Source: an uncultured Chloroflexia bacterium
Lineage (GTDB): Bacteria; Chloroflexota; Limnocylindria; Limnocylindrales; CSP1-4
DNA: 64,000 nucleotides
Assembly (NCBI GenBank): GCA_963810725.1
Contig: CAWEOO010000003.1
Location: forward strand, 135,314-199,313
Reading direction: 5' to 3'
Shown here: positions 26,816 through 54,547 of the stretch, in pieces
Layout: each line of letters begins with the position of its first letter
Position numbering within the stretch: position 1 is the stretch's first letter
Position numbers and translations under genes: made by a program
Notes under the pieces: model-generated
Seen by the model: the letters and a program-made list of their open reading frames with translations, nothing else
Databases searched by the model: none
What the model was told of the DNA's origin: nothing

Positions 26816-26826
26816 GGAGGGTACCA

Positions 26827-27426
26827 ATGAGGTTCTTTCGCACCGATGAGCCGCCCGTCGATCCGTCGCCGGCGGCCGCATCCGACGACCCCGACGACCC
26901 GCCCAGCGAGCCGGCGGATCCTGTCGCCCCGGTCCCCTCGGCGATCACGACCGAGGGCCGGCTCCTCGAGAAGGGATGGCAGCCGCCAACCGACACGATG
27001 CTCTCGAACGTGCTCCGGCGCGAGGCCCTGCGGACGGCCGTCGAGCGGCTCAAGCCTGGTCGACGCCAGGGCCTCAACCAGGTGGCCGCGGCGATCGCGA
27101 CGGGCGACTCCGGCGCGATCGAGGCCGCGATCACCAACCACGTCATCGGCACCTGGCTCGACCTGAATTGTCAGCGCGACACCGGCGACCTGATCGTGTG
27201 GCTCGCGCAACTCGAGAACGCCCTCCGGCGCGAGGTCAACCAGCTCGCCGAGGCGACGCTCGCCAGCCTCGACGCCCTGGCTGCCGACCCCGATGCGCGC
27301 TACCTGCGCGAGCTCGCCCAAGGGTCGCTCGACCGTCAGACGCGATCGATCGGCCCGGGCGGCCGGGCGATGCCGCCCCTCGATCCGCCGCCGGCGGGGT
27401 TCATGCAGCTCATGGTCCCGCGCTGA
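26827..27426 (+). CDS. Element-encoded hypothetical protein of about 199 aa.
   Basis: Its ATG follows a GGGAGG Shine-Dalgarno. The N-terminus is acidic and Pro-rich. GC3 bias is present. Confidence 0.5.
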   Translation: MRFFRTDEPPVDPSPAAASDDPDDPPSEPADPVAPVPSAITTEGRLLEKGWQPPTDTMLSNVLRREALRTAVERLKPGRRQGLNQVAAAIATGDSGAIEAAITNHVIGTWLDLNCQRDTGDLIVWLAQLENALRREVNQLAEATLASLDALAADPDARYLRELAQGSLDRQTRSIGPGGRAMPPLDPPPAGFMQLMVPR

Positions 27427-27914
27427 TGGCACACCCCGTGGCGATCGCCGAGTGGCCTCGGTCTGAGTCGGCCGCTGTACCCTCCGCAGCGGCCGGCTCG
27501 ATCGCCGCGGTCGGGATCCTGGCGGTCACGCAGCCGACCGTCGACGGCCGACCGGCCTGGCCGATCGAGTGGATCCACGACGTCATCCGGCGCTTCGTCC
27601 CGGGGCTCATCCCGATCGTGGCCGGTCACAACGAGCCGGACGTGCCCGCGACCGTCGTCGGGCATCTGTCGTCGCTCGAGGCAGTGCCCGAGGGCCTGCG
27701 CTTCGGTGCCCTCGTCACGATGGCCGCGGCGGAGCGCCTGCAGGCGCGCGGCGGCTACGCGGCCGTCTCCAGCGAGCGTCGCGTCGCGATCGCGGGCCCG
27801 CACACCGTCACCCTGGACCTGGCCGTGGCGCCCTCGAGCCCGCTCGTCGCGATCGCGATCCTCGACGACGACGAGCGGCCGGCCAACCCGTCGTCCTGGA
27901 TCCGCGTCCGATGA
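27426..27914 (+). CDS. Element-encoded hypothetical protein of 162 aa.
   Basis: It is an ORF with GC3 bias. Its stop overlaps the prohead protease start. Confidence 0.45.
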   Translation: MAHPVAIAEWPRSESAAVPSAAAGSIAAVGILAVTQPTVDGRPAWPIEWIHDVIRRFVPGLIPIVAGHNEPDVPATVVGHLSSLEAVPEGLRFGALVTMAAAERLQARGGYAAVSSERRVAIAGPHTVTLDLAVAPSSPLVAIAILDDDERPANPSSWIRVR

Positions 27915-28459
27915 CCGAGGGGCTGATCGAGGGCGTCGTCCTCACGTTCGGGACCGTCGCCACCGTGCGTGACAGCCCGGACGGCCCGACCTACCGCGAG
28001 CTCATCCACCCGACCGCGCTGCGCGGCTTCGATCCGACCCGGGTGCTCCTCACGTTCGGGAACGGCACCCGGGCCAGGGCGGTCGGCCGGGGCGTGGCGG
28101 CCGAGCTCTCCGACCGGGAGCTCGCGATGACGTTCCGGGTCGCCTCGACGCTGGCCGGCGAGGAGGCGATGGTGCTCGCCCGCGACGGGATCCTGGGCGA
28201 CTTCGGCGTCGGTTTCCAGCCGATCGCGGAGCGCACGCGCAGCGACCGGGTCATCGAGCGCCTGGCGATCGACATCGACCGGGTCGCCCTGGTCGAGCGC
28301 GGCGCCTTTGCCGGCACGGGCGTTCGAGTCGCCCGGGCCGCGGCCCAGGACGAGGTCGATCGGCTCGAGCGGGCGGTCGCGATCGATCACGCCCGGGCGA
28401 TCCACGACGCCGAGGTCTTTCGTCGGCGTCTCAGCCAATTCCTGCACGCACAGCCGTGA
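27911..28459 (+). CDS. HK97-family phage prohead (capsid maturation) protease.
   Basis: The protein reads MTEGLIEGVVLTFGTVATVRD...ELIHPTALRGF...LLTFGNGTRARAVG..AAELSDRELAMTFRV, which matches the HK97 prohead protease pattern. Confidence 0.8.
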   Translation: MTEGLIEGVVLTFGTVATVRDSPDGPTYRELIHPTALRGFDPTRVLLTFGNGTRARAVGRGVAAELSDRELAMTFRVASTLAGEEAMVLARDGILGDFGVGFQPIAERTRSDRVIERLAIDIDRVALVERGAFAGTGVRVARAAAQDEVDRLERAVAIDHARAIHDAEVFRRRLSQFLHAQP

Positions 28460-28486
28460 CCAGGACCACGCGACCAGGAGGATCCG

Positions 28487-28726
28487 ATGTCTGATGACGC
28501 GATCAAGGAAGCCGCCGACAACGCCCGCGAGCTGACCGAGCTGCGGCGACAGCCGACCGTGGGCCTCAACCGGCCACCGGAGGACGTGCTCGGGCGCCCG
28601 CTCCCGGACGATCCGGCCGCGGCGCGCGAGCAGCGCCTCGACGCGGTCGCGCTCCGCGACCAGCGCATCGCGGTCGACGTCGCGCGCACCCAGCGCGGCC
28701 TGCCGACGAAGTACGCGACGAAGTGA
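28487..28726 (+). CDS. Small element-encoded protein of 79 aa.
   Basis: It is an ORF with GC3 bias lying between the protease and the capsid-like gene. Confidence 0.4.
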   Translation: MSDDAIKEAADNARELTELRRQPTVGLNRPPEDVLGRPLPDDPAAAREQRLDAVALRDQRIAVDVARTQRGLPTKYATK

Positions 28727-28883
28727 CGGAGGGGGCCGTTTTTTCTGACCCCTCCTGGCGTAGCCGCCAGCGGCTGCGCGCATCGAACGGTGCCCGATTT
28801 GGTCTATTTGCGTCGAGACGCAACTAGTCTGTGCGGGTCTGCACGGACCCAACCCCGACAAGTGAAGAGAGGAGCAACCAACC

Positions 28884-29482
28884 ATGGGTGAGTCACTGGT
28901 CCAGGTCACCGAGGGCAGCGGCAAGAAGCTGCACACCTACAGCCGGGCCATCGGCGCGAACACCGTCGAGGACGAGATCGTCATCCCGGGCGAGCCGTAC
29001 CTGGCGTCCTACGTCATCGCCTTCGCCGGCGTGGGCACCGCCACCCTCGACTCGCACATCGTCCAGATCATGGCCGGCGCGTCGCTCAACGTTCGCATCC
29101 GGCGGATCCGCATCCAGCAGCTGGCCCTTGCCAGCGCGGTCATGAGCCAGCCGTTCCTCATCCATCGTCTGACCACGGCGGGCACCGGCGGCGCGTCGCT
29201 CACGCCGCGACCCTACGACCCGAGCGATGCGGCGGCAGGCGCCACGGCCCAGACGCTGCCGAGCGCCAAGGGCACTGAAGGCGTGTTCCTGCATCGCTTC
29301 ACCATGGGTCTCGTGGCCGCTCACCCCGCGACCGCCTTCTACGAATGGACGCAGCTCGCCGAACGCGAAGCCTCTCGTGATCCCGGCCGGCGTCACCAAC
29401 GGGATCTGCATCAAGAACGGGCTGGCCACGACCGGCGCTTCACTGTACCGGCGTCATCGAGTTCGACGAGACGAGCTTCTGA
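28884..29482 (+). CDS. Small capsid-like structural protein of about 200 aa, possibly a major capsid protein, with two frameshifts near 29380 and 29450.
   Basis: It sits just downstream of the prohead protease, the gene order seen in HK97-like phages. Protein-like sequence continues in shifted frames (AKPLVIPAGVTNGICIKNGLATTGASLY, then GVIEFDETSF*). Confidence 0.4.
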
Positions 29483-29610
29483 CCCGAACAGCCGTTCGCA
29501 TTTCGGAGCGACAGGTGCCAATATCCGTCGTCGGTGGTGATGGTCGACGATCCCTCGAGCCGGTGCCGACGATCAGGTGGGGACCTGGCCGTCCGCCCGG
29601 CTCGGGGTGG

Positions 29611-29997
29611 ATGCCGCGATGCATGACGCCCGACGAGCTCGCCGCCTGGCGCCAGGCAGCGGCCGCGCCGGCTCTCCGAGCCCTCGGGGCACCCGGACGC
29701 CCGTGCATCGACTGCCCGGCCGGCTGGGCCCGCCTGCAGGCCCGCCAGGGCCTGTGCAACGGCGTCCCGGGTCTCGTGCCCGCCGCGCTGCATCCGTCGC
29801 GCCCACCGGCGACCGCGACGCGTCGCGTAGGTCCGCCACGACGCGTCGCGCGGCGATCGACGAGTCGTCAGTGCGCCTGGTGCGGCGTCGCGATCGCCGC
29901 CGGCGAGCGGCAAGGTTCGCGCGTCTGCTCGGCCCGCTGCTACATGGCCGATTGGCGCCGGTCGCGGCGGCTCAGGATGCCCGTCCAAGCCCCGTAG
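29611..29997 (+). CDS. Cys-rich small protein that may bind zinc (CIDCPAGW...CAWCGVAIAAG...CSARCYMADW).
   Basis: It is an ORF with GC3 bias and paired Cys motifs. Confidence 0.45.
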   Translation: MPRCMTPDELAAWRQAAAAPALRALGAPGRPCIDCPAGWARLQARQGLCNGVPGLVPAALHPSRPPATATRRVGPPRRVARRSTSRQCAWCGVAIAAGERQGSRVCSARCYMADWRRSRRLRMPVQAP

Positions 29998-30221
29998 GCC
30001 GCCCAAACGGTCGCCAAGGGCCGATCACCCAGCGCGGTGCCCGTCGCAGCTCCTCGGATGGTTGCAACCCGGCGTCGGGCGACCCAGGACCCGGCGCTAT
30101 GGCCGACATTCGGGCAGGTTGATGGAGTACTTCCCCTTGCGCTTCAGGGTGCCCCCTGGCGCACGCTCCTGGTCACCCGGTCGCGAGCCCCGCGGCCCCA
30201 CGAGAACGAGGTACCTGACCG

Positions 30222-30701
30222 ATGCTGACAGCTGACGGGATCCGGCGAGATCTCTCCGAGGCGTTCCATGGCAACCACGGCGCCGGCTGCGAGTGCTGCG
30301 CGCCGTTCGCGGGCGGACGATCCGCGCTGGAGCTCGAGCTGCTGAAAGAGGCTCGCTACGCGGTCATGCGGTACGAGCGTGAGACGGCCGGCGACGGCCC
30401 GACCGAGCCCGAGCTCGACGCCCTGGCCGAGGCCGCGGCGATCGACGCCCTGATGGCCGCTCGCTACGCGATCACCGAGCGCGCGGTGCGCGGCCTCGCG
30501 CCGGGCGCGCGACGGGAGCCGATCGTCGCCCCCTTCGATCCGGCCACGGAGCGGGTCGCCTGCCAGGCCGAGACGTTCGACGGATCCCATCGCCGCCAGT
30601 GCACGCGCCCGGCGTCGTTTACCCGCGACGGCCTGCTCGTCTGCAAGCAGCACGTCCGCCTCGAGCGGCTCCGCCTGGCGACGCCCGCCGGCTACGATTG
30701 A
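30222..30701 (+). CDS. Cys-containing hypothetical protein of 159 aa.
   Basis: It is an ORF with GC3 bias and contains CECC...C...C motifs. Confidence 0.5.
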   Translation: MLTADGIRRDLSEAFHGNHGAGCECCAPFAGGRSALELELLKEARYAVMRYERETAGDGPTEPELDALAEAAAIDALMAARYAITERAVRGLAPGARREPIVAPFDPATERVACQAETFDGSHRRQCTRPASFTRDGLLVCKQHVRLERLRLATPAGYD

Positions 30702-30705
30702 GTCC

Positions 30706-31419
30706 ATGGCCTCCGGCTCGGCGTTCACGCGGATCCGGGACGACCCGCTCGCGGCGTTCGTCCTGGATCACGCCTCGCTCCTCATCACGGCCGCGTCGAC
30801 CGCGCTCGTGGCCATCCGCGCCATGGCTGTGGCCGGGTTCCAACCTGAGACGGCCGTAGCGCTGCTGTCGAGCGGCGGTCTCACCGGCCTGGTGCTCGCC
30901 ACGATCGAGACCGCGCTGCCGATGGTGGCGCCCGCGATCGCCATTCTGCTGTGGACCGAGTCCGCGCGGTTCCGAGGGTCTCCCTGGCTGTCGATCGTCT
31001 GGGGCGTGTCGCTCCCGATCGCCCTGGTCGTATCGTTGGGGGCGTCGATCGGTTACCTGCTGCTCGGGATCGCTGCGCCCGTCGGCGTGTCCCTGATCAT
31101 TGCTCGTCGGCGTGGCGACCCTACCTTGACACCGGTGGGACTCGCGCTCCTCCTGACCCCCGCGATCGCGCTCGCGCTGATCCCCAGCGGCCGACCATGG
31201 TTCCCGCCCGAGCGCATCACGATCGGGGCCGAGACCTTCACCGGCTACGTCCTCGACGAGTCGGCCGGCTGGACGCGGGTGCTCGTCGACAACCCTCGCT
31301 ACGTCCGCATCGCGGCGTCCGGATCGATCACCGCCCGGGCGTCGTGCGTCACCCAGACCGATCCGCTCTGGACGCCGATCGGCGGCCTCGCCCGTCGCTC
31401 CGGCCTGCCCCCGTGTTGA
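30706..31419 (+). CDS. Polytopic membrane protein of 237 aa, the last gene of the element.
   Basis: It has about six hydrophobic helices. Its stop codon lies 4 bp before the right direct repeat. Confidence 0.6.
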   Translation: MASGSAFTRIRDDPLAAFVLDHASLLITAASTALVAIRAMAVAGFQPETAVALLSSGGLTGLVLATIETALPMVAPAIAILLWTESARFRGSPWLSIVWGVSLPIALVVSLGASIGYLLLGIAAPVGVSLIIARRRGDPTLTPVGLALLLTPAIALALIPSGRPWFPPERITIGAETFTGYVLDESAGWTRVLVDNPRYVRIAASGSITARASCVTQTDPLWTPIGGLARRSGLPPC

Positions 31420-31422
31420 GCG

Positions 31423-31439
31423 TGGCAGCGGTTCTGGCA
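31423..31439 (+). repeat. attR candidate (TGGCAGCGGTTCTGGCA).
   Basis: It is an exact copy of the sequence at 24174-24190. Confidence 0.55.
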
Positions 31440-31749
31440 GCGTCCGGCGTCGGTCGGCCCTGGTCTGTTGTCACGCTCGACGTCGCGCATCGGCGCTCAG
31501 CGCATCCCCCGGCGGACGGTGCCGGACACGGAGGGGCCTACCTGGAGTAGTCGCAAGGCGGTTCCTCGGCGTCGTACACTGGCGACGGCGCGCTCCCGCG
31601 CCTGACTGCCAGACCGAGCCCCCACGCGGCGCGGCGATGCGGCGGTAAAGGGGATCCGGATCCTCGGGACGAACCGGTCGACCATCCGACCGGCCGACGA
31701 CGTGGCGGCGTGGGCGCGTGCGTCGGCGGCCGTGACGGAGAACTGACCG

Positions 31750-33102
31750 ATGACCACCGACAAGGCCTTCAAGCGGGTCGTGCGCGCGCGCATGGCCAAG
31801 ACCGGCGAGCGATATGCCGCCGCCCGACGGACGCTGATCGTGGGGACCGCGGACGGACATCACGCGGAGCCGACGGCCGACGCCGCCACCCCGAGCGGCT
31901 ACCGGATGCGCGGTGGCCTCCACCCGGAGACGGCGGCGCTGGCGAACGTCCTGGCGAACCAGGGTGTTGTCTCGGGCCTGACGGGCGAGCCGTTGACCGA
32001 GGCCGCGATCCTCGGCATCGGCGGGGGCCTGGGCGCCGGCTACATCCTCTGGGAGTTCAAGAGCCACGGCGGGCCGGTGCTCACCCTCGGATTCCGGAAT
32101 CGGTGGCAATACCCGTCGATCCCCGGCTGGACCGGCAAGACGCTCGATCGGCTCGGCGTCGAGCCCGACATGCACGAGACCGGCGGCGCGAAAGGGGCTC
32201 GCGAGGCGCTCGATGCACGCCTGGACGCCGGCATGCCCGTCATCGCCTTGATCGACCTCCAGTCGATCGGGACCTGGGGACAACCCGAGGCGATGTCGGG
32301 GCACTTCGGTCTGGTCGTCGTCGTCTTCGGACGTGACGCCGATGGCGTACCTCGTGGACGACCGTGGCCGGAGCCCATTCCGAGTGTCACCGGCCGTGAT
32401 GGCCGCCGCGCGCGGACGGATCGGCTCGTTCAAGCACCGGATCGTCGGGCTGCGAACGACGCCCGGACCGATCCCGGCCGACCGGCTTCGGGCGGCGATG
32501 CGCGCGGGTCTCCAGGACCAGGTGGATCACCTGCGATCCCCATCCGACTCCTTCTCGCTCCCGGCCTGGCGCAAGTGGGGCCGTCTGATGACCGATCAGC
32601 GGAACGCGAAGGCGTGGCCGCGGGTCTTCGCCGACGGTCACGGCCTGTTCGGCTCGCTGTCGGCCCTTCACGAAAGCGTCGACGGCCAGGTCGGGCCATA
32701 GGGCGGGCACTTGCGGGAGCTGTACGCCGCATCACTCGACGAAGCGGCCGTCGCGCTCGACAACCCTGCGCTCGGTGACGCGGCGCGGGCGTGGCGGGGC
32801 GTCGCCGACCGATGGGAGGAGCTGGCCGACGCGGCCGTACCGCCCGATCTCGACGGTGCAGCCCAGGCGGTCGAGGCGGTCGAGACCCTTCACGAGGCGG
32901 TGATGGCCGGCGAAGGGGGTCGGTCGCGCGTGGGCGCGGCCGCGGAGACCGCGTGGGCGATCCGGGATCGCTACGCCGAAGCCTTCCCCCTGTCACCGGA
33001 CCGCATCGCGGCGATCCTCGAGGACTCGGCGACCGGCTCGGCGCGATCTACCGGGCTGAGGTCGACGCGCTCGAGGTGACCGCTCAGGCCATCGGCAGAT
33101 GA
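31750..33102 (+). pseudogene. BtrH-like (BtrH_N plus DUF4872-type) protein. It has a frameshift near 32340 and an in-frame TAG at 32699-32701.
   Basis: The N-terminal domain is in ORF 31750..32778. It continues in 32333..32701 and then 32711..33102 (LRELYAASLDEAAVALDNPALGDAARAW...). Confidence 0.5.
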
Positions 33103-33886
33103 GGTCTTCACTGCGGCTTCGCAGGGCCCACCGCTCGGGGGTCAGGCCGATCGGGCCGGCCTCGACGAGTCGGTCTGACCCGGGAGTCCCGTCGACTGGC
33201 GCCAATCGACCGGTCATCCAGTCGTGGTACCAGGGCGCCCACGTCCGGGCGCCGCCGTCGTGGTACTCGGCGTATGACCGGCGGTGCGGTGGCTCGTCGG
33301 CGGGCCGCACGGATGTGAACGCCCCCGCATCGTGGAGCGGCGGGAGCTCGGTCTCGGAGACGCCCAGCGTCCGGTAGACCGCCTCGACCTGGTGCAGCCA
33401 CTCGTGGACGTAGCCCTGCTCGGGGTCGGGATCGGTCAGGAGGGTCCGCCAGTGGTCGGTCGAGATGGACGAGAACCCGGCACCGAACGTCGCATCGGAC
33501 GGTCCGATGCTGCATCCCCAGCCACACTGGGGCACGGCCGGATCGCTCGGCCACAGTGCGTAGACGGAGTCGTAGGTCGCACCCGTCCCGGCGACCTCCT
33601 CGAGCTCGGGGCGGACCTCGCGGGGTCCGACCCACCAGCGGCCCCCGCCGCTCGATGACAGCGACCGGATCGAGCGGCGCACCTCGACGACATCGAACGG
33701 CTCGAGCGCTGCGAGGCCGTCACTCCAGGCGTGGACGGTCGCCGGCAGGCGCTCGACGACGTCCATCACGGCCGCCCGTTCGTCGCGGGTCATGACCCGG
33801 CGGGCGCGGCTGCGCTGCAGCCCAGATCCGTACCGGGCGTCCAGGACCGGAAAGAGCAGCACCAGGGTCCGCCACGACTGGGTCAT
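32993..33886 (-). CDS. Hypothetical protein with an HExxH motif (GYVHEWLHQVEAVY), possibly a metallopeptidase-like fold.
   Basis: It is a 297-aa ORF with protein-like composition. The C-terminal 30 aa may be an artefact. Confidence 0.45.
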   Translation of the reverse strand: MTQSWRTLVLLFPVLDARYGSGLQRSRARRVMTRDERAAVMDVVERLPATVHAWSDGLAALEPFDVVEVRRSIRSLSSSGGGRWWVGPREVRPELEEVAGTGATYDSVYALWPSDPAVPQCGWGCSIGPSDATFGAGFSSISTDHWRTLLTDPDPEQGYVHEWLHQVEAVYRTLGVSETELPPLHDAGAFTSVRPADEPPHRRSYAEYHDGGARTWAPWYHDWMTGRLAPVDGTPGSDRLVEAGPIGLTPERWALRSRSEDLICRWPERSPRARRPQPGRSRRAGRRVLEDRRDAVR

Positions 33887-33934
33887 GACCCCGAGCGTAC
33901 CCGGCGCTTCGACCGGCTGCTAGCATCGTCCGCC

Positions 33935-34840
33935 ATGAACACCAAGCGGCTCGCGACCGCCGACCCGGGGCAGCTGATCGGCACGGATTGGCTGGCCGAT
34001 CACCTCGAGGACCCCGACCTGCGCCTCGTCCACGTCTCGCCGAATCGGCGCGTCTACAACAAGCGACACATCCCAGGCGCCGTGTACAGCGACATCCATC
34101 GCGAGATCGCCCTGCGCGGCACGGCTCCGGAGACCGGCGACGCGGAGCGAGAATGGCTGGTCCCCACGCCCGGGCAGACCGCGGCGGTGCTGCGCCGCTG
34201 GCGCGTCGGCGAGGGGGACCGGATCGTCTTCTACGACGACGTCGGGCTCAATCGTCAGGCCATCCGCGGCTACTGGCTGCTCAGCCTGTACCGGTTCCCG
34301 AAGGACCGGCTGCACATCCTCGACGGCGGGATCGAAGCCTGGCGGCGGGCGGGCCACGCCACCTCGACCGAGGTCCCCGCGACCGATCCGGCGGACGCAG
34401 AGCGGACCCCGGTCACGCTGGGGGAGCGCGACGACTCGATCATCGCGACCTACGACGAGGTCCTGGCCTGGAGCAGGGAATCGAGCCAGGGTTCCGACGC
34501 GCCGACGAGGCTCCTCGACGTCCGGACCGCCGGCGAATGGGTCGGCACGGACCTTCGAGCCCGGCGCGGCGGCCACATCCCGGGCGCCCGCAACCGCCTG
34601 TTCTCGGACCTGCTGACGGACGAGGGGACCTTCCGCGCGGTCGACGAGATGCTCTCGATCATCCGCTCGAGCGGCGTCGAGCCGGCGGAGATCCGTGCCA
34701 CGTACTGCCAGGGCGGGGTGCGCGCCGCCCTGGTCTGGTTCGTGCTCCACGAGCTGGCCGGCTTCGAGGACGTCCGGAGCTACGCGGGCTCATGGGAGGA
34801 GTGGGGCAACCGGCCGGACAGCCCGATCGAGGCGCCCTGA
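33935..34840 (+). CDS. sseA: Two-domain rhodanese, a thiosulfate/3-mercaptopyruvate sulfurtransferase.
   Basis: It has tandem rhodanese domains with the active-site motif ATYCQGGVRAA. Confidence 0.85.
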   Translation: MNTKRLATADPGQLIGTDWLADHLEDPDLRLVHVSPNRRVYNKRHIPGAVYSDIHREIALRGTAPETGDAEREWLVPTPGQTAAVLRRWRVGEGDRIVFYDDVGLNRQAIRGYWLLSLYRFPKDRLHILDGGIEAWRRAGHATSTEVPATDPADAERTPVTLGERDDSIIATYDEVLAWSRESSQGSDAPTRLLDVRTAGEWVGTDLRARRGGHIPGARNRLFSDLLTDEGTFRAVDEMLSIIRSSGVEPAEIRATYCQGGVRAALVWFVLHELAGFEDVRSYAGSWEEWGNRPDSPIEAP

Positions 34841-34856
34841 GCGGCTGCCGATCCTG

Positions 34857-35648
34857 ATGCATCGCGAGCTGCGAACACTTCCCGAGCGATCGACGGCGAT
34901 CATTCGCGCGTTCGGTCCCGTCATCCAGCGTTCGTCGGTGCGTGGCGCTCTCGTGGCCGCGGCCGTGGCGGTCGCGTGGATCTACCTGCGACCCGAGGTC
35001 GGGCCGATCCCGGAGCCCCTGGTCGGGGCACCAGTCGCGGGCGCGGTGGCGACCGCCGTGGCGTTCCTGCTGGTCCCGCGGCGAGTCCATCGGGCGTTCG
35101 AGGCGTTTTCCTGGCTCGGTCGCCTGGAGCTTGACCGATTCCAGGAACGAAGCGGCGGGCCCACGCCCGCGAACGCCGAGCAGATCGATCTGTGGTTGGC
35201 CGCCCATCCGCCGGCACCAGCTGTTGTCTTGCCGCGGGTCGAGCTGTTGGCCTTCGCCGGTCGATACGACGACGCGCGCCGGGAGCTGGCGACGCTCGAA
35301 CCCTCGCCGGAGACGGCCTTCGAACGAGCCTCGTTGATCCAGTACATCGACTGGCTCGAGACGGGAGCGCCAGGGGTGGACGACCTTCGATCGGCGGCCG
35401 AGAAGGTTCGTCAAGGAGGCGAGGCACGGCGAGCCGCGGACGTGACGGTCGCCCTGGCCGAAGCGCGGGAGCGGGCCACTCGGGACGACCCTGAGTGGTT
35501 TGCCCCCCTCGAGGCCGTTCGGGCTCGCCTTGGGCTCGCACCGCGACGCGTCGTCCTGCGTGACACCTGGGCCAAGGCCGGTGTCGCGTTCACGCTCGTC
35601 GGGTTCATCGCGGGGATGGTCGCGTCGCTGCTCCGCTTCCTGCTGTGA
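34857..35648 (+). CDS. Membrane-associated hypothetical protein.
   Basis: It has two N-terminal hydrophobic helices and one C-terminal helix. GC3 bias is present. Confidence 0.5.
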   Translation: MHRELRTLPERSTAIIRAFGPVIQRSSVRGALVAAAVAVAWIYLRPEVGPIPEPLVGAPVAGAVATAVAFLLVPRRVHRAFEAFSWLGRLELDRFQERSGGPTPANAEQIDLWLAAHPPAPAVVLPRVELLAFAGRYDDARRELATLEPSPETAFERASLIQYIDWLETGAPGVDDLRSAAEKVRQGGEARRAADVTVALAEARERATRDDPEWFAPLEAVRARLGLAPRRVVLRDTWAKAGVAFTLVGFIAGMVASLLRFLL

Positions 35649-35706
35649 GGTATCCTTCCGACCGGCCGCGCGACGCGGCCCCGTGGGCACGCTGCCCGCG
35701 ACACGT

Positions 35707-35781
35707 TCCGGCGTAGCTCAGTGGTAGAGCGGGCGGCTGTTAACCGCTTGGTCGTAGGTTCGAGTCCTACCGCCGGAGCCA
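35707..35781 (+). tRNA. tRNA-Asn(GTT).
   Basis: A hand-folded cloverleaf gives a 7-bp acceptor stem (TCCGGCG/CGCCGGA), a D-arm GCTC-AGTGGTA-GAGC, an anticodon stem GGCGG/CCGCT with the loop CTGTTAA, a T-arm GTAGG-TTCGAGT-CCTAC, and an encoded 3' CCA. Confidence 0.9.
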
Positions 35782-47166: not shown

Positions 47167-47192
47167 GAAGCCGGCGCCATGGCGCCGGCTTC
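47167..47192. terminator. Perfect 26-bp palindrome GAAGCCGGCGCCATGGCGCCGGCTTC between convergent genes, a candidate bidirectional terminator.
   Basis: It forms a 12-bp GC stem and is followed by GTTATGTCTG. It lies between the stop of the secreted protein at 47135 and the parB stop at 47216. Confidence 0.45.
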
Positions 47193-47215: not shown

Positions 47216-48286
47216 TCAGTCCCGGGTATCGCCCGTCCGGACGATGGCGATCGCGTTCTCGAGGCGGAGCTTCGCGATGGTCAGGTACTTCGCGAGGTTG
47301 GCCCGGTCGACCTCGGTGATCGAGGCGACGGCGTCCGGTGATCGGAGGACGCCGACGAGCAGGTCGAGCGCGTCGGCCAGGGAGTGCTTGGCGTTCACGA
47401 GCGAATCGTCGGTCAGCTCCGCGGCGGGTCGCGGTTCTGTCTCGGGGATGGCGGCGTCCTCGAGCTCGAATTCGCCATCGTCATGGGCGGCGTCATCGAT
47501 CCCGATGTCGTCCACGACGCGCGCCGGCCGAGAGCGGCGACCCTCGATCTTGTCGCGCAGCTTGATGAGCGTCAGCTCGCCGCGCGCGACCTGATCGGCC
47601 AGCCGGCGTCGCTTCTTCGGGTCGTCGACCTTCATCAGTTCGTAGGCGTGGGACAGGGTGTCTTTGCGCAAGGACACCAGCTCGCGAATCTCCGGTGGCG
47701 CGTCTGCCAGGCGAAGCCGGTTCTCGAGGTAGCCCTTGTCCTTGCCGAGCTTGTCGGCGAGCTTGCGGATGCTGTAGCCGTGCTCGCGGACCATCCGGTC
47801 GTACATCGCCGCCTCGTCGAGTGGCGAGATGTCCTCGCGCTGGAGGTTTTCGATGATCGAGATCTCGAGGGCCGTGTCGTCGTCGATCTCTTCGATCAGG
47901 GCGGGGATCGTCTCGAGGCCCGCCTGCTTCGAGGCCCGCCAGCGGCGCTCGCCGGCGACGAGCTGGTAGCGGTTCGGGCCCATGGGCCGAACGAGGATCG
48001 GCTGTAGCACGCCGTGCTCGCGGATGGAGGCGGTCAGCTCGTCGAGCGTCTCCTGGTTGAACGCGAGACGCGGCTGCTGCGGGTTGGAGTCGATGCGATC
48101 GACCGGGACGATCCGGACCCCGACGCTGCGCGTCGGTGAGTCGTTCGACAGCAGGCTGACGATGGCAGGGGAGAGCTCACGCTCCTCCGAAAGGCGACGG
48201 GCGGCCGTCGCCCGGAAATCAGGACGCGCCAAGTTCGACCACCTCCCGTGCGAGGTCGCGGTATGTTCGCGCGGCGTCGCTGCCAC
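47216..48286 (-). CDS. parB: Chromosome partitioning protein ParB/Spo0J. The true start may be internal, near 48220.
   Basis: It has ParB N-terminal and HTH domains ([10 protein letters not shown]...[25 protein letters not shown]). It contains one degenerate copy of the 16-bp palindrome. Confidence 0.85.
47660..47675. repeat. GTCTTTGCGCAAGGAC, a 15/16 match to the 16-bp palindrome, inside parB.
   Basis: The flanking bases extend it to the 20-bp near-palindrome GTGTCTTTGCGCAAGGACAC. Confidence 0.5.
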
Positions 48287-49010
48287 CGGCGTAGGTCGTG
48301 ATCGGGCGTCCGACCAGCGGCGCCTCGCCGAGCTTCACGGTGTTTCGGACGATGCTGGTGAAGACGTGATGATCGCCGACCACGCGCAGCTCATCGAGCA
48401 TGTCGCGAGCGAGGTTGGTGCGGCCGTCGTAGAACGTGGGCAACAGCCCGAGGATGCGCAGGTCGCGGTTGAGCTTGAGCCGGATCGCGTTGATGACCTT
48501 GACGAGGTTGGTCAGGCCCTTCATCGCGTAGTACTGGGTCTGGACCGGGATGATCACGCCGTTGGCGGCCACGAGGCCATTGACGGTCAGCAGCCCGAGG
48601 TTCGGGGGACAGTCGATGAGGACGTAGTCGTAGTCGTCGGTCTGCCCGTCGATGGCGTCGCGCAGGATCTGCTCGCGCCCGAGAGCGGTGAACAGCTCCC
48701 CCTCGGTCGAGGCGAGGTCGATGTGCGCCGGAGCGACGTCGATGCCCGCGCTTTCGGTCGCGCGAATCACTTCGGCGAGCGTCGATCGTCCGTCGGCGAG
48801 CACGTCGGCCATCGAGCGTTCGACGGTATTGAGGTTGATCCCGAGTCCAGCCGTGAGGTTGGCCTGGGGGTCCATGTCGATGCAGAGGATGCGCAGGCCT
48901 TCCTCGGCGAGGGCCCCGGCGAGGTTGATCGCCGTCGTCGTCTTCCCGACGCCGCCCTTCTGGTTGGCGATCGCGATCACATTGGTCACCAGGACATCAC
49001 CTCGAATCAT
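48219..49010 (-). CDS. parA: ParA/Soj partitioning ATPase.
   Basis: It has a deviant Walker A motif ([18 protein letters not shown]). Confidence 0.9.
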
Positions 49011-49096
49011 CGACCGGGCTCGGCGTGCCGTGCAGAGCGGCTGGGGGCGGGGATGTGGTCATGCTACCGCAGCCCACCCGCTTGCGGACAGGCTGG

Positions 49097-49139
49097 TTAT
49101 CCACACGGATCGAGAGTTGTTCACCATTTCGGTGGATAA
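49097..49139. promoter_or_regulatory. Inverted pair of DnaA-box-like sites in the parA/pccB divergent intergenic region.
   Basis: TTATCCACA lies at about 49097-49105 and its inverse, GGTGGATAA (TTATCCACC on the other strand), at about 49131-49139. The segment between them is of relatively low GC. Confidence 0.35.
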
Positions 49140-49149
49140 CTGGGACCGT

Positions 49150-50748
49150 ATGATGGCCACTGTCCTTGCACAAAGACGACCTTTGGCAGCGGGAGGATCG
49201 GCATTGCCGACGAATGAAGAGCGAGCCGCGCGGCTCGATGCGATGCGCGCAGAGTCGATGCTCGGCGGCGGACAGGAACGCATCGATCAGCAACATAAGC
49301 GCGGAAAGCTGACGGCGCGCGAACGGCTGGACCTGCTTCTCGACGCCGATTCGTTCGTCGAACTGGATGCGTTCGTCACGAACCGGAACCCCGAGGCCGA
49401 GACCGCGTTTCTTGGCGATGGCGTGGTCACCGGGCACGGCACCATCGACGGTCGGCTCGTCTTCGTGTTCAGCCAGGACTTCACCGTGTTCGGTGGATCG
49501 TTGTCGGAGGCGTACGCGGAAAAGATCTGCAAGGTCATGGATCTCGCGATGAAGGTCGGGGCGCCGATCGTCGGTCTCAACGATTCGGGTGGCGCCCGCA
49601 TCCAGGAGGGCGTGGTATCCCTCGGCGGCTACGCCGACATCTTCCTGCGCAACACGCTGGCGTCGGGCGTCGTGCCGCAGCTGTCGCTCGTCATGGGCCC
49701 TTGTGCCGGTGGCGCCGTGTACTCGCCGGCGATCACCGACTTCACGATCATGGTCGAGGGGACGAGCTACATGTTCGTCACCGGACCGAACGTCGTGAAG
49801 GCGGTCACGCACGAGGACGTCGACGCCGAGACGCTGGGCGGTGCGACGACCCACACGACGCGCAGCGGCGTCGCCCACATCGCAGCGCATGACGAGGCGG
49901 AGGCACTCGCGGTCGCGCGGCGGATCCTGGGCCACCTCCCGCAGAACAACCTCGGCGAGGCGCCGCGCGGTTCCGCGACCGACCCCGTCGAGCGACGCGA
50001 TGGCGAGCTGGATCGGATCGTCCCCGACGACCCGAGCAAGCCCTACGACATGCACCGTGTGATCGAACTCGTGATCGACGACGGCGCGTTCCTCGAGATC
50101 CAGCCCGGCTGGGCACCGAACATCCTGACCGGGTTCGCGCGGCTTGGCGGGCGCAGCGTCGGGATCGTCGCCCAGCAACCGGCGGTGCTGGCGGGGGCCC
50201 TGGACATCGACGCCTCCACGAAGGCGGCGCGCTTCGTTCGGACCTGCGACTGCTTCAATGTGCCGCTCGTGACTCTGGTCGATGTGCCGGGTTTCATGCC
50301 GGGTGTCGACCAGGAGCACGGCGGGATCATCCGCCACGGCGCGAAGCTGTTGTACGCGTACTGCGAAGCGACGGTGCCGAAGCTGACCGTCATCACGCGC
50401 AAAGCCTACGGCGGCGCGTACGACGTCATGTCCAGCAAGCATGTGCGCGGTGATATCAACCTCGCCTGGCCGACCGCGGAGATCGCGGTGATGGGCGCGG
50501 AGGGCGCGGTCAACATCCTGCATCGCGACACGATCGCGTCCGCTGCCGATCCGGCCACCGAGCGCGCGCGGCTGGTCGCCGACTACGAGGAGCGATTCGC
50601 CAACCCGTATGCCGCCGCGGCCCGTGGCTATGTGGACGACGTGATCCGGCCATCCGACACGCGGCCGCGACTCATCGCCGCGCTGGAGATGCTTGCCGAC
50701 AAGCGGGACACGAATCCGCCCAAGAAGCACGGCAACATCCCGCTGTGA
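49150..50748 (+). CDS. pccB: Propionyl-CoA carboxylase beta chain / methylmalonyl-CoA carboxyltransferase.
   Basis: It has carboxyltransferase family motifs ([40 protein letters not shown]...). Confidence 0.9.
49162..49177. repeat. GTCCTTGCACAAAGAC, a 14/16 match to the palindrome, at codons 5-9 of pccB.
   Basis: It is a degenerate copy lying 60 bp from the DnaA-box pair. Confidence 0.4.
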
Positions 50749-52853
50749 CCGCGCCCTCGCGGACGGCGTCCGACGCCGCGTCTTTGCGCAAAGACGGTGG
50801 CCGGCCATTCGCCCGGATCCTGATCGCGAATCGCGGGGAGATCGCCCTGCGCATCATGCGGACCTGTCGCGATCTCGGCATCGAAACGGTGGCCGTCTAC
50901 TCCGACGCCGACGCGGATGCGTCCCACGTCCAGTCGGCCGATCTCGCCGTCCGGCTCGGCCCGGCGCCGGCGTCGGAGAGCTACCTGCGCTTGGACGCGA
51001 TCGTCGAGGCGGCCATGGCCACGGGTGCCGAGGCGATCCACCCAGGCTACGGATTCCTGTCCGAGCGGGCAGCGTTCGCGCGGGCGGTGATCCATGCCGG
51101 TCTCGCCTTCATCGGACCGAGTCCCGATGCCATCGATGCCCTCGGCGACAAGCTGACCGCCCGCCGAACCGCGATGGCGGCCGGCGTCCCGGTGGTGCCG
51201 GGGACGTTCGAGGCTGCGGCCGTGGACCGCCCCGACGAGGCGGCGGCCGTCGTCGCGGCGGCGGAGGCCGTCGGTTTCCCGTTGCTCGTGAAGGCGTCGG
51301 CCGGCGGTGGTGGCCGCGGCATGCGTCACGTCGCGTCGCCCTCGGACTTGCCGGCCGCCCTGGCGGCAGGATCGGCGGAGGCGTTGGCCGCATTCGGTGA
51401 TGGCGCGGTGTACCTGGAACGCGAGGTGCGTCCAGCCCGGCACATCGAGGTGCAACTCCTGGGCGATGCGGACGGCACGATCGTGGCGCTGGGGGAGCGG
51501 GACTGCTCGATCCAGCGGCGGCACCAGAAGCTCGTCGAGGAATCGCCGGCGCCGGGCCTGACGCCCGATGAGCGAGCAGAGCTGCACGACCTCGCGATCC
51601 GGGCCGCACGCGCCGCCCGGCTGCACAACGCCGCGACGGCGGAGTTCCTGTTCGACACCGACCGGCGGTTCTGGTTCCTCGAGGTCAACGCGCGGCTGCA
51701 GGTCGAACACGGCGTCACGGAGCTCGTCACGGATCTCGATATCGTCGCGGAACAACTGTGGATCGCGGCGGGGGCGCCGCTGCCCGAGGCCGTTCTGGCT
51801 GCGGGTGCCGCCGCGTTGGCACCGACCCGCCATGCGATCGAGATCCGGCTCGCCGCCGAAGATCCGTCGCGTGCTTTCGCGCCGTCGCCGGGCCGGGTGG
51901 GGGAGTGGCGGATGCCATCGGGGCCTGGGGTTCGCATGGATACGGCCATCCGCGCCGGGGAGCGGGTGCCGCCGGACTACGATCCGTTGATCGCCAAGAT
52001 CATGACCGTCGGCCCGGACCGGGTTACTGCCATCGACCGGATGCGGCGGGCGCTCGACGAGGTCGCGGTGACCGGCATCCAGACGACGCTGCCGTTCGAC
52101 CGGGCGTTGCTGCGCGATCCGGCGTTCGGCCTGGGTGAGGTTTCCACGGACTGGGTCGAGACGCACTGGGACGGCGACGCGAGTCGGCGAGAGGCGCTGG
52201 CCGTGGCGGTGCAGGTGGCGGCGGGAGCCGCGGACCCGGGCGGTCCCGGAGATGGGTCGTCCGGCGGGACGGCCCGACACCTGGGCGTCTTTGCGCAAAG
52301 ACGCGGGTGCCGCGGCGTGGCGAAACGCCGGCCGCGCGACGGCCATCGATCGATGGCCGCGGTGAGCGGCAGGGCGGACTCCCGACCCAGGCGCGTCTCG
52401 ACGGCTCCGGCGACCGCCCATCCAGGCGATGAGCCGGTGACCGTCGACTCGCCGTCGAGCGCGGCCCTCGGACCGAATGGGGTGGTCGGACTGGTCGGCG
52501 CCCTCGATCGCGACGGCCGCCGTCTGGTCGAGGTCGTCGTCGACGGCTGGCGATTCGAACTCCTCGTGGAGGATGAGGCCAGGGCCGACCTGCGCGAGCG
52601 TGCCTCGCGGGACCGCACAGCAGCCGGTTCCGCTGGTGGACCGCTCGAGATCCGTGCCATCATCCCGGGCAGGATCGTGTCCGTGGCCGTCGCGCCCGGT
52701 GACACGGTCGAGGCCGGTCAGACGCTGCTCGCCGTGGAGGCCATGAAGATGCAGAACGAGCTGCGGGCGCCACGGGCGGGGACAGTGACGCATGTGCCGG
52801 TCGGCACCGGCTCCACGGTGGAGCTCGGCGATGTCCTCGTGGTGCTCGCGTGA
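50745..52853 (+). CDS. accA: Acetyl/propionyl-CoA carboxylase alpha subunit, comprising biotin carboxylase and BCCP.
   Basis: It has a biotin carboxylase ATP-grasp domain and a C-terminal biotinyl domain (EAMKMQNE). Its GTG start overlaps the pccB stop as GTGA. Confidence 0.9.
50780..50795. repeat. GTCTTTGCGCAAAGAC, a perfect 16-bp palindrome, at codons 12-17 of accA.
   Basis: It is an exact copy. It is read in-frame as S-L-R-K-D. Confidence 0.6.
52287..52302. repeat. GTCTTTGCGCAAAGAC, a perfect 16-bp palindrome, in the BC-BCCP linker of accA.
   Basis: It is an exact copy. It is read as V-F-A-Q-R, a different frame from the copy at 50780. Confidence 0.6.
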
Positions 52854-54547
52854 CCCCGCCACACGACCGGCCGCCGCGCCCGGTGGGGGAGGGCAAGGAC
52901 CCGGCCCGGGAACGGTGGCGCCAGACGCTCCGGGCCAAGGCCGCGGAGGCTGCGCCGGAACGGCGCGCCCGCTTCGAGACTTCGTCCGGCCTCGAGATCC
53001 GCGACCTGTACACCGCCGCCGATCTGGCCGGGATGGACGAGAATCGCGATCTCGGCCGCCCAGGCGAGTACCCATTCGCGCGCGGCGTCCAGCCGACCAT
53101 GTACCGCAGCCGCTTTTGGACGATGCGTCAGTACGCCGGGTTCGCGACGGCCGAGGAGACGAACCGCCGCTTCCGCTACCTCCTGGACCACGGCCAGACC
53201 GGCCTGTCGGTCGCGTTCGACCTCCCGACCCAGATGGGCTACGACTCCGACGCCCCGGCGGCAGAGGGCGAGGTCGGCCGGGTCGGGGTGCCCATCAGCA
53301 GCCTGGCCGACATGGCGGTGCTGGTCGACGGCCTGCCCCTGGGCGAGGTCAGCACCTCGATGACGATCAACGCGACCGCACCCATCCTGCTCGCGCTGTA
53401 CGTGGCGGCCGCCGAGGCCCAGGGCGTGGCTCGCGAGCGGATCTCGGGCACGACCCAGAACGACATCCTCAAGGAGTACATCGCCCGGGGGACCTACATC
53501 TTTCCGCCGCGCCCGTCGATGCGCCTCGTGACCGACGTCTTCGAGTTCTGCGCCCGCGAGCTGCCTCGCTGGAACACGATCTCCATCAGCGGCTACCACA
53601 TGCGCGAGGCCGGGGCGACAGCCGCTCAGGAGCTCGCGTTCACCCTGGCCGACGCCATCGCCTACGTCGAGGCGGCCGTTGACCGAGGGCTCGACGTCGA
53701 CGACTTCGCCGGGCGCCTGTCCTTCTTCTTCGCGGCCTGGTCGGAGCTGTTCGAGGAGGTCGCCAAGTTCCGGGTGGCCCGCCGCATGTGGGCGACGATC
53801 ATGCGCGAGCGGTTCGGGGCGACGAACCCCAAGTCGCTGCTGTGCCGGTTCCACGTCCAGACCGCCGGGTCCAGCCTGACCGCCCAGTCGATCGACAACA
53901 ACGTGGTGCGCACCACGGTCCAGGCGCTGGCCGCGATCCTGGGCGGAGCGCAAAGCCTGCACACGAACTCCCGCGACGAGGCGCTCGCTCTCCCGACCGA
54001 GGAGGCCGCCCGGCTGGCCCTGCGAACGCAGCAGATCCTGGCCTACGAGGCGGGGGTGACCGAGACGCCCGATCCCCTGGCCGGCTCCTATTACGTGGAG
54101 AGCCTTACGAACGAGCTCGAGGCCGCCGCCTGGGCCTACCTCGATGAGATCGAGTCGTTGGGTGGGACGCTCGCGGCCATCGAGCGCGGCTTCCAGCAGC
54201 GCGAGATCCAGGAGGCGGCCTACCGCGTCCAGCGTGCGGTCGACAGCGGCGACCAGGTCGTCGTCGGCGTGAACAAGTTCCGCGACGACGAGGTCGCCAC
54301 GCCACCGACCCAGCGGATCGATCCAGAAGGGGAGCGCCGCCAGATCGAACGCGTCCGGAAGGTCCGGGCGGAGCGTTCCGCCGAGGCGTGGGGCTCGGCC
54401 ATGGACGAGCTCGAGCGGGTCGCGCTGGCGGACGGCAATCTGATGCCGGCGATCCTCGCGGCGGTCCGTGTCTACGCCACGGTCGGGGAGATCAGCGACC
54501 GGCTTCGGGTGACATGGGGCGAGCACCGCGAACTCATCACGGTCTGA
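52850..54547 (+). CDS. mcm: Methylmalonyl-CoA mutase family catalytic (large) subunit of 565 aa with no fused B12-binding domain.
   Basis: It has MCM substrate-binding barrel motifs ([25 protein letters not shown]...[20 protein letters not shown]). It stops where a fused enzyme would begin the cobalamin-binding domain. Confidence 0.88.

Follow-up and report, generated by a model that had tools for sequence, protein, structure and literature searches.

A 64,000-nucleotide stretch of the genome of an uncultured Chloroflexia bacterium (the window, analyzed here as a whole) contains a partition locus, parB-parA, that lies divergent from an operon encoding propionyl-CoA carboxylase (pccB and accA) and methylmalonyl-CoA mutase (mcm), and four copies of a short palindrome are clustered at this locus. 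This paper describes the palindrome, its distribution among members of the class Limnocylindria, and the ParB protein that is encoded beside it. The four copies are quite probably non-canonical parS sites, i.e., centromere-like loading sites for the ParB of the same locus, and, judged by comparison of related loci, an 18-bp palindrome is most likely the chromosomal centromere of the Limnocylindria, in place of the near-universal parS. Non-canonical parS-like sites clustered at parAB had been proposed in a first-pass annotation of the window, and this emerged as the best-supported explanation of those weighed below.

A search of the entire window with the 16-mer GTCTTTGCGCAAAGAC reproduced the coordinates of the two exact and two near copies annotated earlier: the exact copies are at 50780-50795 and 52287-52302, a copy with one mismatch (GTCTTTGCGCAAGGAC) is at 47660-47675, and a copy with two mismatches (GTCCTTGCACAAAGAC) is at 49162-49177. 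All four fall inside 4.7 kb around parAB, and the other 59 kb contain no further match at up to three mismatches. Dinucleotide shuffles gave a mean of 0.05 matches, with none of the 100 shuffles reaching four, and among the 11 perfect 16-bp palindromes in the window this is the only one that recurs. Successive copies are spaced by 1502, 1618, and 1507 bp; a special meaning of this regular spacing of about 1.5 kb was considered and rejected, as it is due to the lengths of the genes between the junctions. Stop codons are absent from all six frames of the palindrome, which can therefore sit in coding DNA as well as at operon junctions.

The anatomy of the site was derived from 194 instances with at most two mismatches in related loci, which revealed that the true unit of the recurring palindrome is 18 rather than 16 bp, YGTCYTTGCGCAARGACR, i.e., YGTCYTTGC followed by GCAARGACR. 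A pyrimidine (C or T) precedes the 16-mer in every instance, with the mirroring purine behind it, hardly any variation is seen at positions 1-3 and 6-8, and positions 4 and 13 are Y and R, respectively, and vary independently between the two arms; the central bases are invariant, with GCGC nearly so. Given this degeneracy at positions 4 and 13, the parB copy agrees with the consensus, and the only real core mismatch among the window copies is found in the 49162 copy. The extension of the parB copy to a 20-bp palindrome (47658-47677), as annotated earlier, is imperfect, with 9 of 10 pairs. Independent variation of the half-sites around an invariant centre leads to the expectation of a dimeric DNA-binding protein rather than an RNA stem.

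The four sites are numbered in the order of their coordinates (Table 1), and for several of them the gene context had to be revised, while the reading frames given by the first-pass annotation (S-L-R-K-D and V-F/L-A-Q-R) are correct. Site 1, which reads GTG TCC TTG CGC AAA GAC ACC (V-S-L-R-K-D-T) on the parB sense strand, is not located in a permissive N-terminal extension but in the DNA-binding, helix-turn-helix (HTH) region of ParB (Pfam HTH_ParB, residues 151-245 of the 356-aa open reading frame). Site 2, formerly placed inside the pccB coding sequence, most likely lies upstream of the real pccB start, in the promoter or leader: TTG 49204, with GGGAGGA ahead of it at 49191-49197, is the probable start, the called pccB genes of two relatives (L002 and L003) begin 3' of the motif, and the supposed 'ATGATG' is the conserved -10-like TATGAT. 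The site begins 7 nucleotides (nt) past this hexamer and about 25 nt ahead of the likely start. Site 3 had been assigned to the N-terminal part of accA; it stands out as perfectly identical within a pccB-accA spacer that otherwise varies in length and sequence among relatives, and in some of these it is found upstream of the accA start. The assignment of site 4 to an interdomain linker holds for the window, where, as in L003, accA is one fused open reading frame for biotin carboxylase (BC) and BCCP; in L001 (5382-7450) and L002 (5108-7422), BC and BCCP are called as two overlapping genes, and the motif copy precedes the gene boundary by about 55-60 nt.

Close homologues of the window ParB (81-97% identity) are numerous in metagenome-assembled genomes (MAGs). 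Three of their loci (L001-L003) were fetched via the ParB protein from contigs of 1.7-3.1 Mb and are unbiased by the motif because they were retrieved through the protein; in these loci synteny is kept and three or four copies of the motif are found at the same places. An exact scan for the 16-mer in one genome per species (596 Gb) gave at least 120 stretches, and 89 of the 120 listed represent the same par-pcc or par-mcm locus (parB-parA<>pccB-accA-mcm) in Chloroflexota MAGs of high GC content that bear the labels Candidatus Limnocylindria/Limnocylindrales, CSP1-4, or 'uncultured Chloroflexia'. Six further Chloroflexota stretches among the matches listed lie elsewhere, i.e., 89 of 95 Chloroflexota stretches are the par locus, and the other listed matches are scattered singles in unrelated taxa that are consistent with chance in 596 Gb.

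Within the class, parAB adjoins pccB-accA-mcm, or mcm alone, throughout, and the motif positions in parB, 5' of pccB, and at the pccB/accA junction are kept in relatives with ParB identities of 52-97%. The parB copy is found at the same codon position in 44 relatives (ParB 54-100% identical), an equivalent of site 2 is present in the intergenic regions of 44 of 53 relatives, site 3 is the copy that is most often exact across the class, and site 4 is restricted to closer relatives (L001, L036, L053, L097, and L099). Four relatives (L012, L074, L096, and L119) have lost pccB-accA and kept the motif beside parA and in parB. A second class of site was encountered in three MAGs, where the motif lies between the 3' ends of convergent genes encoding a thiamine pyrophosphate (TPP) enzyme and a GNAT acetyltransferase, a position that has no promoter logic; in L083 and L098 the palindrome is longer, at 22-26 bp, and in one contig (L023 and L098) 360 kb separate the site from the par locus. 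As a separate observation, the MAG MFD06742.bin.2.302 contains two different par-pcc loci on separate contigs (L019 and L053; ParB 85% and 88% identical to that of the window), which probably reflects strain mixing in the bin and not duplication.

The copy inside parB uses TTG, which represents 6.9% of the Leu codons, and AAA, which represents 6.2% of the Lys codons of this genome, and, with the amino acids given, the probability that synonymous choice alone would yield the site is about 0.002. In the few lineages without the parB copy the residues drift (SL to TI, AV, or AA; K to R); because the residues change where the site is lost, they are not constrained by the protein. As judged from the rare codons, selection at the parB copy acts on the DNA, and the DNA-level conservation claimed by the first-pass annotation is borne out both by these codons and by the fixed positions of the copies despite ParB divergence.

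The gene products of the locus belong to well-known families. ParB consists of a ParB_N CTPase domain and an HTH_ParB domain, scores 167.8 bits against TIGR00180 (cut-off 58.45), and has an intact CTP-binding motif GERRWRA in its N-terminal domain that is invariant in the clade alignment; its C-terminal region is atypical. ParA matches Pfam AAA_31/CbiA/ParA, and the parA stop overlaps the parB start, translationally coupling the two. The features by which a ParABS system is recognized at the gene level are thus all present, i.e., adjacent ParA and ParB, GERRxRA, and a multi-copy inverted repeat at parAB. The structures to which the window ParB aligns best are those of Noc, Caulobacter ParB, and Thermus Spo0J (E = 1e-39 to 1e-41). 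In Caulobacter ParB, parS is contacted by the conserved residues Q162, G170, K171, S172, N178, and R204, by R173, which never varies in proteins that bind parS, and by G201, which is altered in Noc; specificity is further associated with positions 179 and 184, at which ParBs differ from one another (PMC7383237). Assignment of the corresponding residues by alignment to 6T1F revealed the replacements Q162I, S172D, R173K, T179R, A184D, G201S, and R204Y in the window ParB, and G170, K171, and N178 are the same as in Caulobacter. The recognition helix, GKDKGY[LVI]ENRLRLA, does not vary among 48 Limnocylindria ParBs whose identity is otherwise 52-100%. This pattern of replacement suggests that the ParB has diverged to read something other than canonical parS.

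The canonical site itself, TGTTNCACGTGAAACA, has no match in the window at up to three mismatches, in agreement with what had been reported at first pass, and none at up to two mismatches in 736 kb of related loci; it was not found either in the mobile-element sister loci, the third-subfamily loci, or loci L130-L132 that are described below. Literature searches with the motif and its core gave only unrelated matches (primers and the like), and a search on divergent parS in Chloroflexi found nothing relevant.

Comparison with the nearest ParB relatives outside the class provides a further line of evidence. ParBs with a G-K/R-x-K-G-Y helix make up a small clade, and the other near matches among 50%-identity cluster representatives have the canonical GKSRS..N..RLL. 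The nearest ParBs outside the Limnocylindria are P0162, P0164, and P0273 (helix GKGKGY[IV]E[DS]RLRL), the first two of which are 51-52% identical to the window ParB; sister ParBs with this helix show 45-53% identity to P0162. Their loci resemble plasmids or integrative and conjugative elements (ICEs), with TraG/TrwB, Replic_Relax, Mrr, N6/N4 methylase, and Phage_rep_O, and contain no pcc genes; a tblastn search of PLSDB with the sister ParB gave nothing above about 44% identity. In L124-L126, the only perfect palindromes of at least 14 bp are two or three copies of the 18-bp TGTCTGGACGTCCAGACA; all three loci have them inside parB, and L125 and L126 also just 5' of parA. Another, more distant locus, L133 (GC 0.50, ParB 45% identical to P0162), was encountered in a metagenome scan and has three copies of TGTCTGGACGTCCAGACA; it was the only true ParAB locus among the 11 stretches of that scan, and the others were rejected as single chance-level matches. 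TGTCTGGACGTCCAGACA and the Limnocylindria site have the outer arm TGTCT...AGACA and the central CG in common, and differ in the inner four bases of each arm. Moreover, one copy in each of L124 and L133 coincides with the homologous codons, GTG TCT GGA CGT CCA GAC ACC (V-S-G-R-P-D-T), the Limnocylindria counterpart being GTG TCT TTG CGC AAA GAC ACC (V-S-L-R-K-D-T). A third subfamily, represented by L129, has two copies of TGTACTTACGTAAGTACA inside parB, and the copies inside the sister parB genes recur in one reading frame (V-S-G-R-P-D-T and V-Y-L-R-K-Y-T).

On this set of loci, the palindromes appear to track the ParB subfamilies across unrelated gene neighbourhoods. Three ParB/palindrome pairs can be compared (TGTCTTTGC/GCAAAGACA, TGTCTGGAC/GTCCAGACA, and TGTACTTAC/GTAAGTACA), of which the first two have the outer arm TGTCT in common and all three have TGT, with differing inner cores. 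In the two best-compared subfamilies, K171, K173, G174, Y175, and R179 are common, alongside the shared outer arm, and residues 172, 178, 184, 201, and 204 differ, alongside the differing inner core. The shared residues would thus pair with the shared outer arm and the differing residues with the inner core, in agreement with the geometry that has been published, where an outer base is read by residue 173 and an inner base by residue 201.

The divergent parA-pccB intergenic region harbours additional conserved elements. A -10-like hexamer (TATGAT, TATCAT, or TAGAAT) is present in 38 of 44 relatives, and site 2 begins 4-8 nt past it in 20 of these 38. A consensus promoter/terminator scan called no promoter in this intergenic region or inside the operon, so that the -10 assignment is drawn from conservation. 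Between the presumed divergent promoters, 22 bp from site 2 and with a constant spacing of about 28-29 nt to the parA -10-like element (GTAGCAT complement), lies a DnaA-box-like trio in which TTATCCACA and GGTGGATAA are inverted consensus DnaA boxes and TTGTTCACC is a box-like sequence between them. A DnaA box is present in the intergenic regions of 50 of 53 relatives and the full trio in 41 of 53. No AT-rich unwinding element was seen at the trio, which could represent DnaA control of parAB, or a DnaA-box cluster. In the deepest-branching relatives (L015, L062, L073, L088, L110, and L123), a tRNA gene (CAT anticodon type) is found between parA and pccB, and a variant of the motif, GTCTTTGTGCAAAGAC, is located just 5' of the TATACT -10-like element of this tRNA gene, about 18 nt past a DnaA box.

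The following mechanism is proposed, in which binding, CTP-dependent spreading, and segregation are inferred from knowledge of the protein family. ParB dimers would recognise YGTCYTTGCGCAARGACR through the diverged HTH, with one monomer on each 9-bp arm. ParB would then bind CTP via its intact GERRWRA domain, close into a clamp, and slide onto the flanking DNA, whereby a partition complex could be built over the parAB-pcc cluster of about 5 kb, to be segregated by the adjacent Soj-type ParA. The sites occupy tolerant places, i.e., fixed codons of parB, the parA-pccB intergenic region, and pcc cistron junctions. As to its origin, the system belongs to a ParB clade (G-K/R-x-K-G-Y) whose other members are found in Chloroflexota and other bacteria on elements resembling plasmids or ICEs, and in which each subfamily appears to have its own palindrome. 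The copy that abuts the pccB -10 may give ParB a modest role as a repressor, and the DnaA-like trio between the divergent promoters suggests a link to DnaA.

Several observations weigh against the assignment of the palindrome as parS. Three of the four window sites lie just 5' of the starts of pcc-operon cistrons, and site 2 abuts a -10-like element, which is compatible with an operator. In addition, a sister chromosomal clade (P0494/P0495; L130-L132), which branches just outside all motif-bearing ParBs and has the same recognition helix, has parAB that does not adjoin pcc or mcm, and contains neither a copy of the motif (at up to three mismatches) nor another candidate palindrome within 10 kb on either side of parAB; within the same distance no DnaA boxes were found. 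The palindromes that were considered in L130-L132 were GC-rich coding sequences only, including a shared TCGAGGACGTCCTCGA in a CorC-family gene that consists of preferred codons, and were rejected; the sites of these chromosomes may be further than 10 kb from parAB. In chromosomes, the motif thus co-occurs with pcc/mcm adjacency as well as with ParB. Finally, the exact 16-mer occurs in 30 IMG/VR viral stretches (Table 1), and a ParB profile search found no ParB-like open reading frame in the fetched stretches with the multi-copy motif. These include a phage-like family with 5-8 copies of AGTCTTTGCRCAAAGACT per contig, 5' of ribosome-binding sites, where AGTCTTTGC[G/A]CAAAGACT recurs about every 2 kb, 10-25 nt 5' of GGAGG and ATG (GC 0.53), and a second group with one or two copies of TGTCTTTGCGCAAAGACA (GC 0.56-0.70). 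Pfam and PHROGs searches on the open reading frames flanking the viral motif were uninformative, and a search for viral ParBs with the clade alignment gave 80 generic phage ParBs (helix GKSRAY...), none of them on motif-bearing contigs.

These observations bear mostly on two explanations in which the motif is regulatory. ParB itself could bind the motif with a mainly regulatory, KorB-like role, repressing or tuning the divergent parAB and pccB-accA-mcm, with partition secondary or absent. We regard this as unlikely, even though the distance of site 2 from the -10-like hexamer in 20 of 38 relatives, the position of sites 3 and 4 ahead of cistron starts, the class-wide adjacency of parAB to pccB-accA-mcm or mcm, the absence of the motif from the sister clade without pcc adjacency, and a weak KorB-domain match (19.8 bits, below the cut-off) are all in its favour: the locus encodes a complete Soj-type ParA that is translationally coupled to ParB, sites are found inside parB and between convergent genes where there is no promoter logic, and the mobile-element sisters display classic plasmid parS placement with no metabolic operon nearby. 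Regulation and partition are, moreover, not mutually exclusive. An operator for an unnamed transcription factor of the propionyl-CoA carboxylase/methylmalonyl-CoA operon, with the parB copy being incidental, was among the alternatives named at first pass and has been weakened to the point of being quite unlikely. Pfam and NCBIfam searches, which included the conserved hypothetical neighbours, found no recognisable DNA-binding regulator besides ParB in the conserved neighbourhood, the parB copy is held with rare codons at one codon position class-wide, the four relatives that lost pccB-accA retain the motif, a conserved copy lies between the convergent TPP-enzyme and GNAT genes, and related palindromes follow the ParB subfamilies on mobile elements without pcc genes. 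These points stand against the positions of the motif at the pccB promoter or leader and at operon junctions, its restriction in chromosomes to loci where pcc or mcm adjoins parAB, and the viral copies 5' of genes in the absence of ParB, all of which an operator would explain.

A function of the motif in the pcc mRNA, as a hairpin that would control processing, stability, or translation between cistrons, is very unlikely. Three copies are indeed found ahead of Shine-Dalgarno sequences, in the 5' leader or in intercistronic positions, the viral copies also precede ribosome-binding sites, and the exact copies can form a 6-8 bp stem (z = -2.2 for the 52287 copy), but the pccB-leader and parB copies fold no better than shuffles (z = -0.33 and -0.89). 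The variation at positions 4 and 13 is not compensatory, as GTCC...AAAGAC gives a C-A mismatch, the would-be loop GCGC is nearly invariant, and neither the parB copy nor the convergent-gene site fits; it is the sequence, and not the pairing, that is conserved over deep divergence. A generic dispersed repeat of the REP type, or recurrence by chance, is hardly credible, and is rejected because the motif is locus-specific and retains the same positions while ParB identity falls to 52%. Short palindromes that are mostly at gene boundaries, as observed here, would be expected of such a repeat; however, no shuffle reached the observed count, the remainder of the window is devoid of copies, the Chloroflexota stretches listed are one locus in 89 of 95 cases, and the sequence is identical class-wide, unlike species-specific REP families. 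Hundreds of scattered copies, by which the first-pass annotation would have recognized a generic repeat, were not seen as far as scanned, and the copies are kept at the same three or four places in relatives, a point that the annotation had proposed to check.

Starting from the preferred explanation of the palindrome as a parS-like site, a more far-reaching scenario can be formulated, which we consider possible and rather doubtful. The class Limnocylindria would lack canonical ParB-parS and would segregate its chromosomes by a mobile-element-derived ParABS system acting on a new 18-bp centromere. The copy in parB would dictate ParB residues (S-L-R-K-D versus S-G-R-P-D in the sister), and the other copies, within the propionyl-CoA carboxylase operon, would lock the two operons together, possibly coupling ParB loading and DnaA-box control to expression of the pathway.

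Table 1. Locations of the genes, sites, and related repeats; features without an L number refer to the window, others to the locus named.
Feature	Location	Strand	Sequence or remark
parB	47216-48232	-	338 aa from TTG 48232
parA	48219-49010	-	263 aa, Soj-type ATPase, deviant Walker A KGGVGKTT
pccB	49204-50748	+	
accA	50745-52853	+	biotin carboxylase fused to BCCP
mcm (methylmalonyl-CoA mutase)	52850-54547	+	
epimerase-like glyoxalase protein	3' of mutase	+	
site 1	47659..47676		TGTCTTTGCGCAAGGACA; inside parB
site 2	49161..49178		TGTCCTTGCACAAAGACG; parA-pccB divergent intergenic region
site 3	50779..50796		CGTCTTTGCGCAAAGACG; junction of pccB stop and accA start
site 4	52286..52303		CGTCTTTGCGCAAAGACG; biotin carboxylase/BCCP linker of accA
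ParB recognition-helix coding sequence	47696..47746	-	canonical counterpart GKSRSHVANTMRLLALP
-10-like TATGAT	49148..49153	+	presumed pccB promoter, inferred from conservation
DnaA-box-like trio	49097..49139		TTATCCACA - N11 - TTGTTCACC - N5 - GGTGGATAA; between divergent parA and pccB promoters
convergent-gene sites	L032 1039-1054; L083 1959-1974; L098 1006-1021		between TPP-enzyme and GNAT genes
TGTCTGGACGTCCAGACA copies	L124 10554, 10778; L125 4553, 6184, 8998; L126 8791, 10417; L133 2762, 3510, 3666		
TGTACTTACGTAAGTACA copies	L129 10773, 10932		inside parB
Roseiflexaceae-type repeats	L127 9005, 10758/10824; L128 8984, 10797		
viral stretches with motif	L149, L152, L164, L165 (IMGVR_UViG_3300022864_000001); L150, L155, L171; L175; L147, L154, L158, L163, L167-L170		

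The gene layout of the locus was confirmed by Pfam and NCBIfam. Elsewhere in the window, housekeeping genes are encountered, including dnaG, rpoD, sucCD, and icd, as well as a gene for a GGDEF-EAL protein, and the window is therefore assigned to the main chromosome and not to a plasmid; dnaA and dnaN are absent from its 64 kb. An Rfam scan of the window found tRNA only, with no RNA family at the sites, and an exact-protein look-up of the window ParA gave no record. Just 3' of the parB stop, a 20-bp GC-rich perfect palindrome, GCCGGCGCCATGGCGCCGGC (47170-47189), is followed by TTCGTTAT, and the two are likely a bidirectional intrinsic terminator between parB and the convergent neighbouring gene. 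The epimerase open reading frame of the window carries an unexplained N-terminal extension of about 170 aa; in some relatives this glyoxalase-fold protein has a barstar-like N-terminal region (L002 2076-3415; L003 2563-3450), and in L002 a barnase-like ribonuclease gene is located between mcm and the epimerase gene. Behind a tyrosine integrase gene (24273-25418), open reading frames mostly without Pfam matches extend over about 10 kb to the vicinity of a tRNA gene (35707-35778), and the region 24273-35778, downstream of dnaG-rpoD, may be an integrated mobile element. Among other ParB loci, those of the Roseiflexaceae type (HTH_17-parA-parB among transposases) have TGTCGTA[G/C]CTACGAC[G/A] 5' of the small HTH_17 gene as well as GTATnnC-CA-GnnATAC inverted repeats inside parB, either of which is a parS candidate.

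If the parS assignment is true, the Limnocylindria represent a class-wide exception to the parS rule, and their ParB, with its replaced base-contacting residues, is a natural experiment in the co-change of centromere and protein specificity. The three ParB/palindrome pairs give a testable hypothesis on the recognition code, in which residues 173-179 would read the outer bases and residues 201 and 204 the inner ones, and they could provide further orthogonal ParB/parS pairs for DNA-labelling tools. Furthermore, the motif may serve to locate origin-proximal centromeres in abundant uncultured Chloroflexota of soil and freshwater. The presence of the sites within a metabolic operon and beside conserved DnaA boxes raises the question whether segregation, replication control, and metabolism are coupled.

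Among the known systems, the closest in overall design is the canonical ParABS (Spo0J/ParB) system, whose 16-bp parS is a near-universal marker of bacterial chromosomes (PMC5450999). The window locus has in common with it the adjacent parA and parB, the GERRxRA and HTH motifs, the TIGR00180 match, the location on the main chromosome, and sites with TGT outer bases and a central CG that occur in few copies in and around parAB, including inside parB. It differs in that the site is 18 bp long with the arm YGTCYTTGC, whereas canonical parS is 16 bp long with the arm TGTTTCAC, in that Q162, S172, R173, G201, and R204 of canonical ParB are all replaced (by I, D, K, S, and Y, respectively), and in that parAB lacks the rsmG/jag/yidC context and lies divergent from a metabolic operon, unlike canonical chromosomal parAB. 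The Bsr parS sites of secondary replicons of Burkholderiales are replicon-specific 16-bp palindromes with a T-rich arm and a 6-bp core of two C, two G, one A, and one T around a central CG; the window core TGCGCA fits this general description, the level at which the two were compared, and in that system, as proposed here, related ParBs read related and distinct palindromes (PMC5450999). The Bsr systems belong to another ParB lineage and host phylum, in contrast to the Limnocylindria system, which is found on the apparent main chromosome of a whole class.

Retargeting of the ParB fold has a precedent in Noc, in which a few substitutions at positions 173, 179, 184, and 201 redirect it to another 16-bp palindrome (PMC7383237). 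The best NCBIfam E-value of the window ParB is for the Noc model (TIGR04285, 186.5 bits, below the cut-off of 315), but the residues at 173/179/184/201 are Q, K, K, and R in Noc versus K, R, D, and S in the window ParB, and the window system has an adjacent parA, a different motif, and clustered sites, whereas the Noc-binding sites (NBS) are spread genome-wide. KorB of IncP plasmids is a ParB-family CTPase that acts on the palindromic operator OB, TTTAGCSGCTAAA, and is both a partition protein and a repressor, so that a dual role at the promoters of pccB and parA might be modelled on it; OB has TTxGC/GCxAA in common with the Limnocylindria motif. The OB site is, however, of odd length, the window system has no KorA partner, the KorB domain (PF08535) scores 19.8 bits in the window ParB, below the cut-off of 22.3, and the match to KorB in the PDB is weak (4.9e-18 versus 1e-39 to 1e-41 for ParB/Noc). 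Regulators of the ScfR/PccR/RamB type, which respond to short-chain acyl-CoA, have sites of the form TTTGCAAA, to which the motif core TTTGC-GCAAA may bear a loose resemblance; this assignment was rejected, since the core is TTTGCGCAAA and not TTTGCAAA, and no HTH_3/ScfR-type protein of the XRE family is present among the neighbours scanned. By these comparisons, the Limnocylindria system has the gene-level composition of a ParABS system, and is distinct from canonical parS, from Noc, and from KorB.

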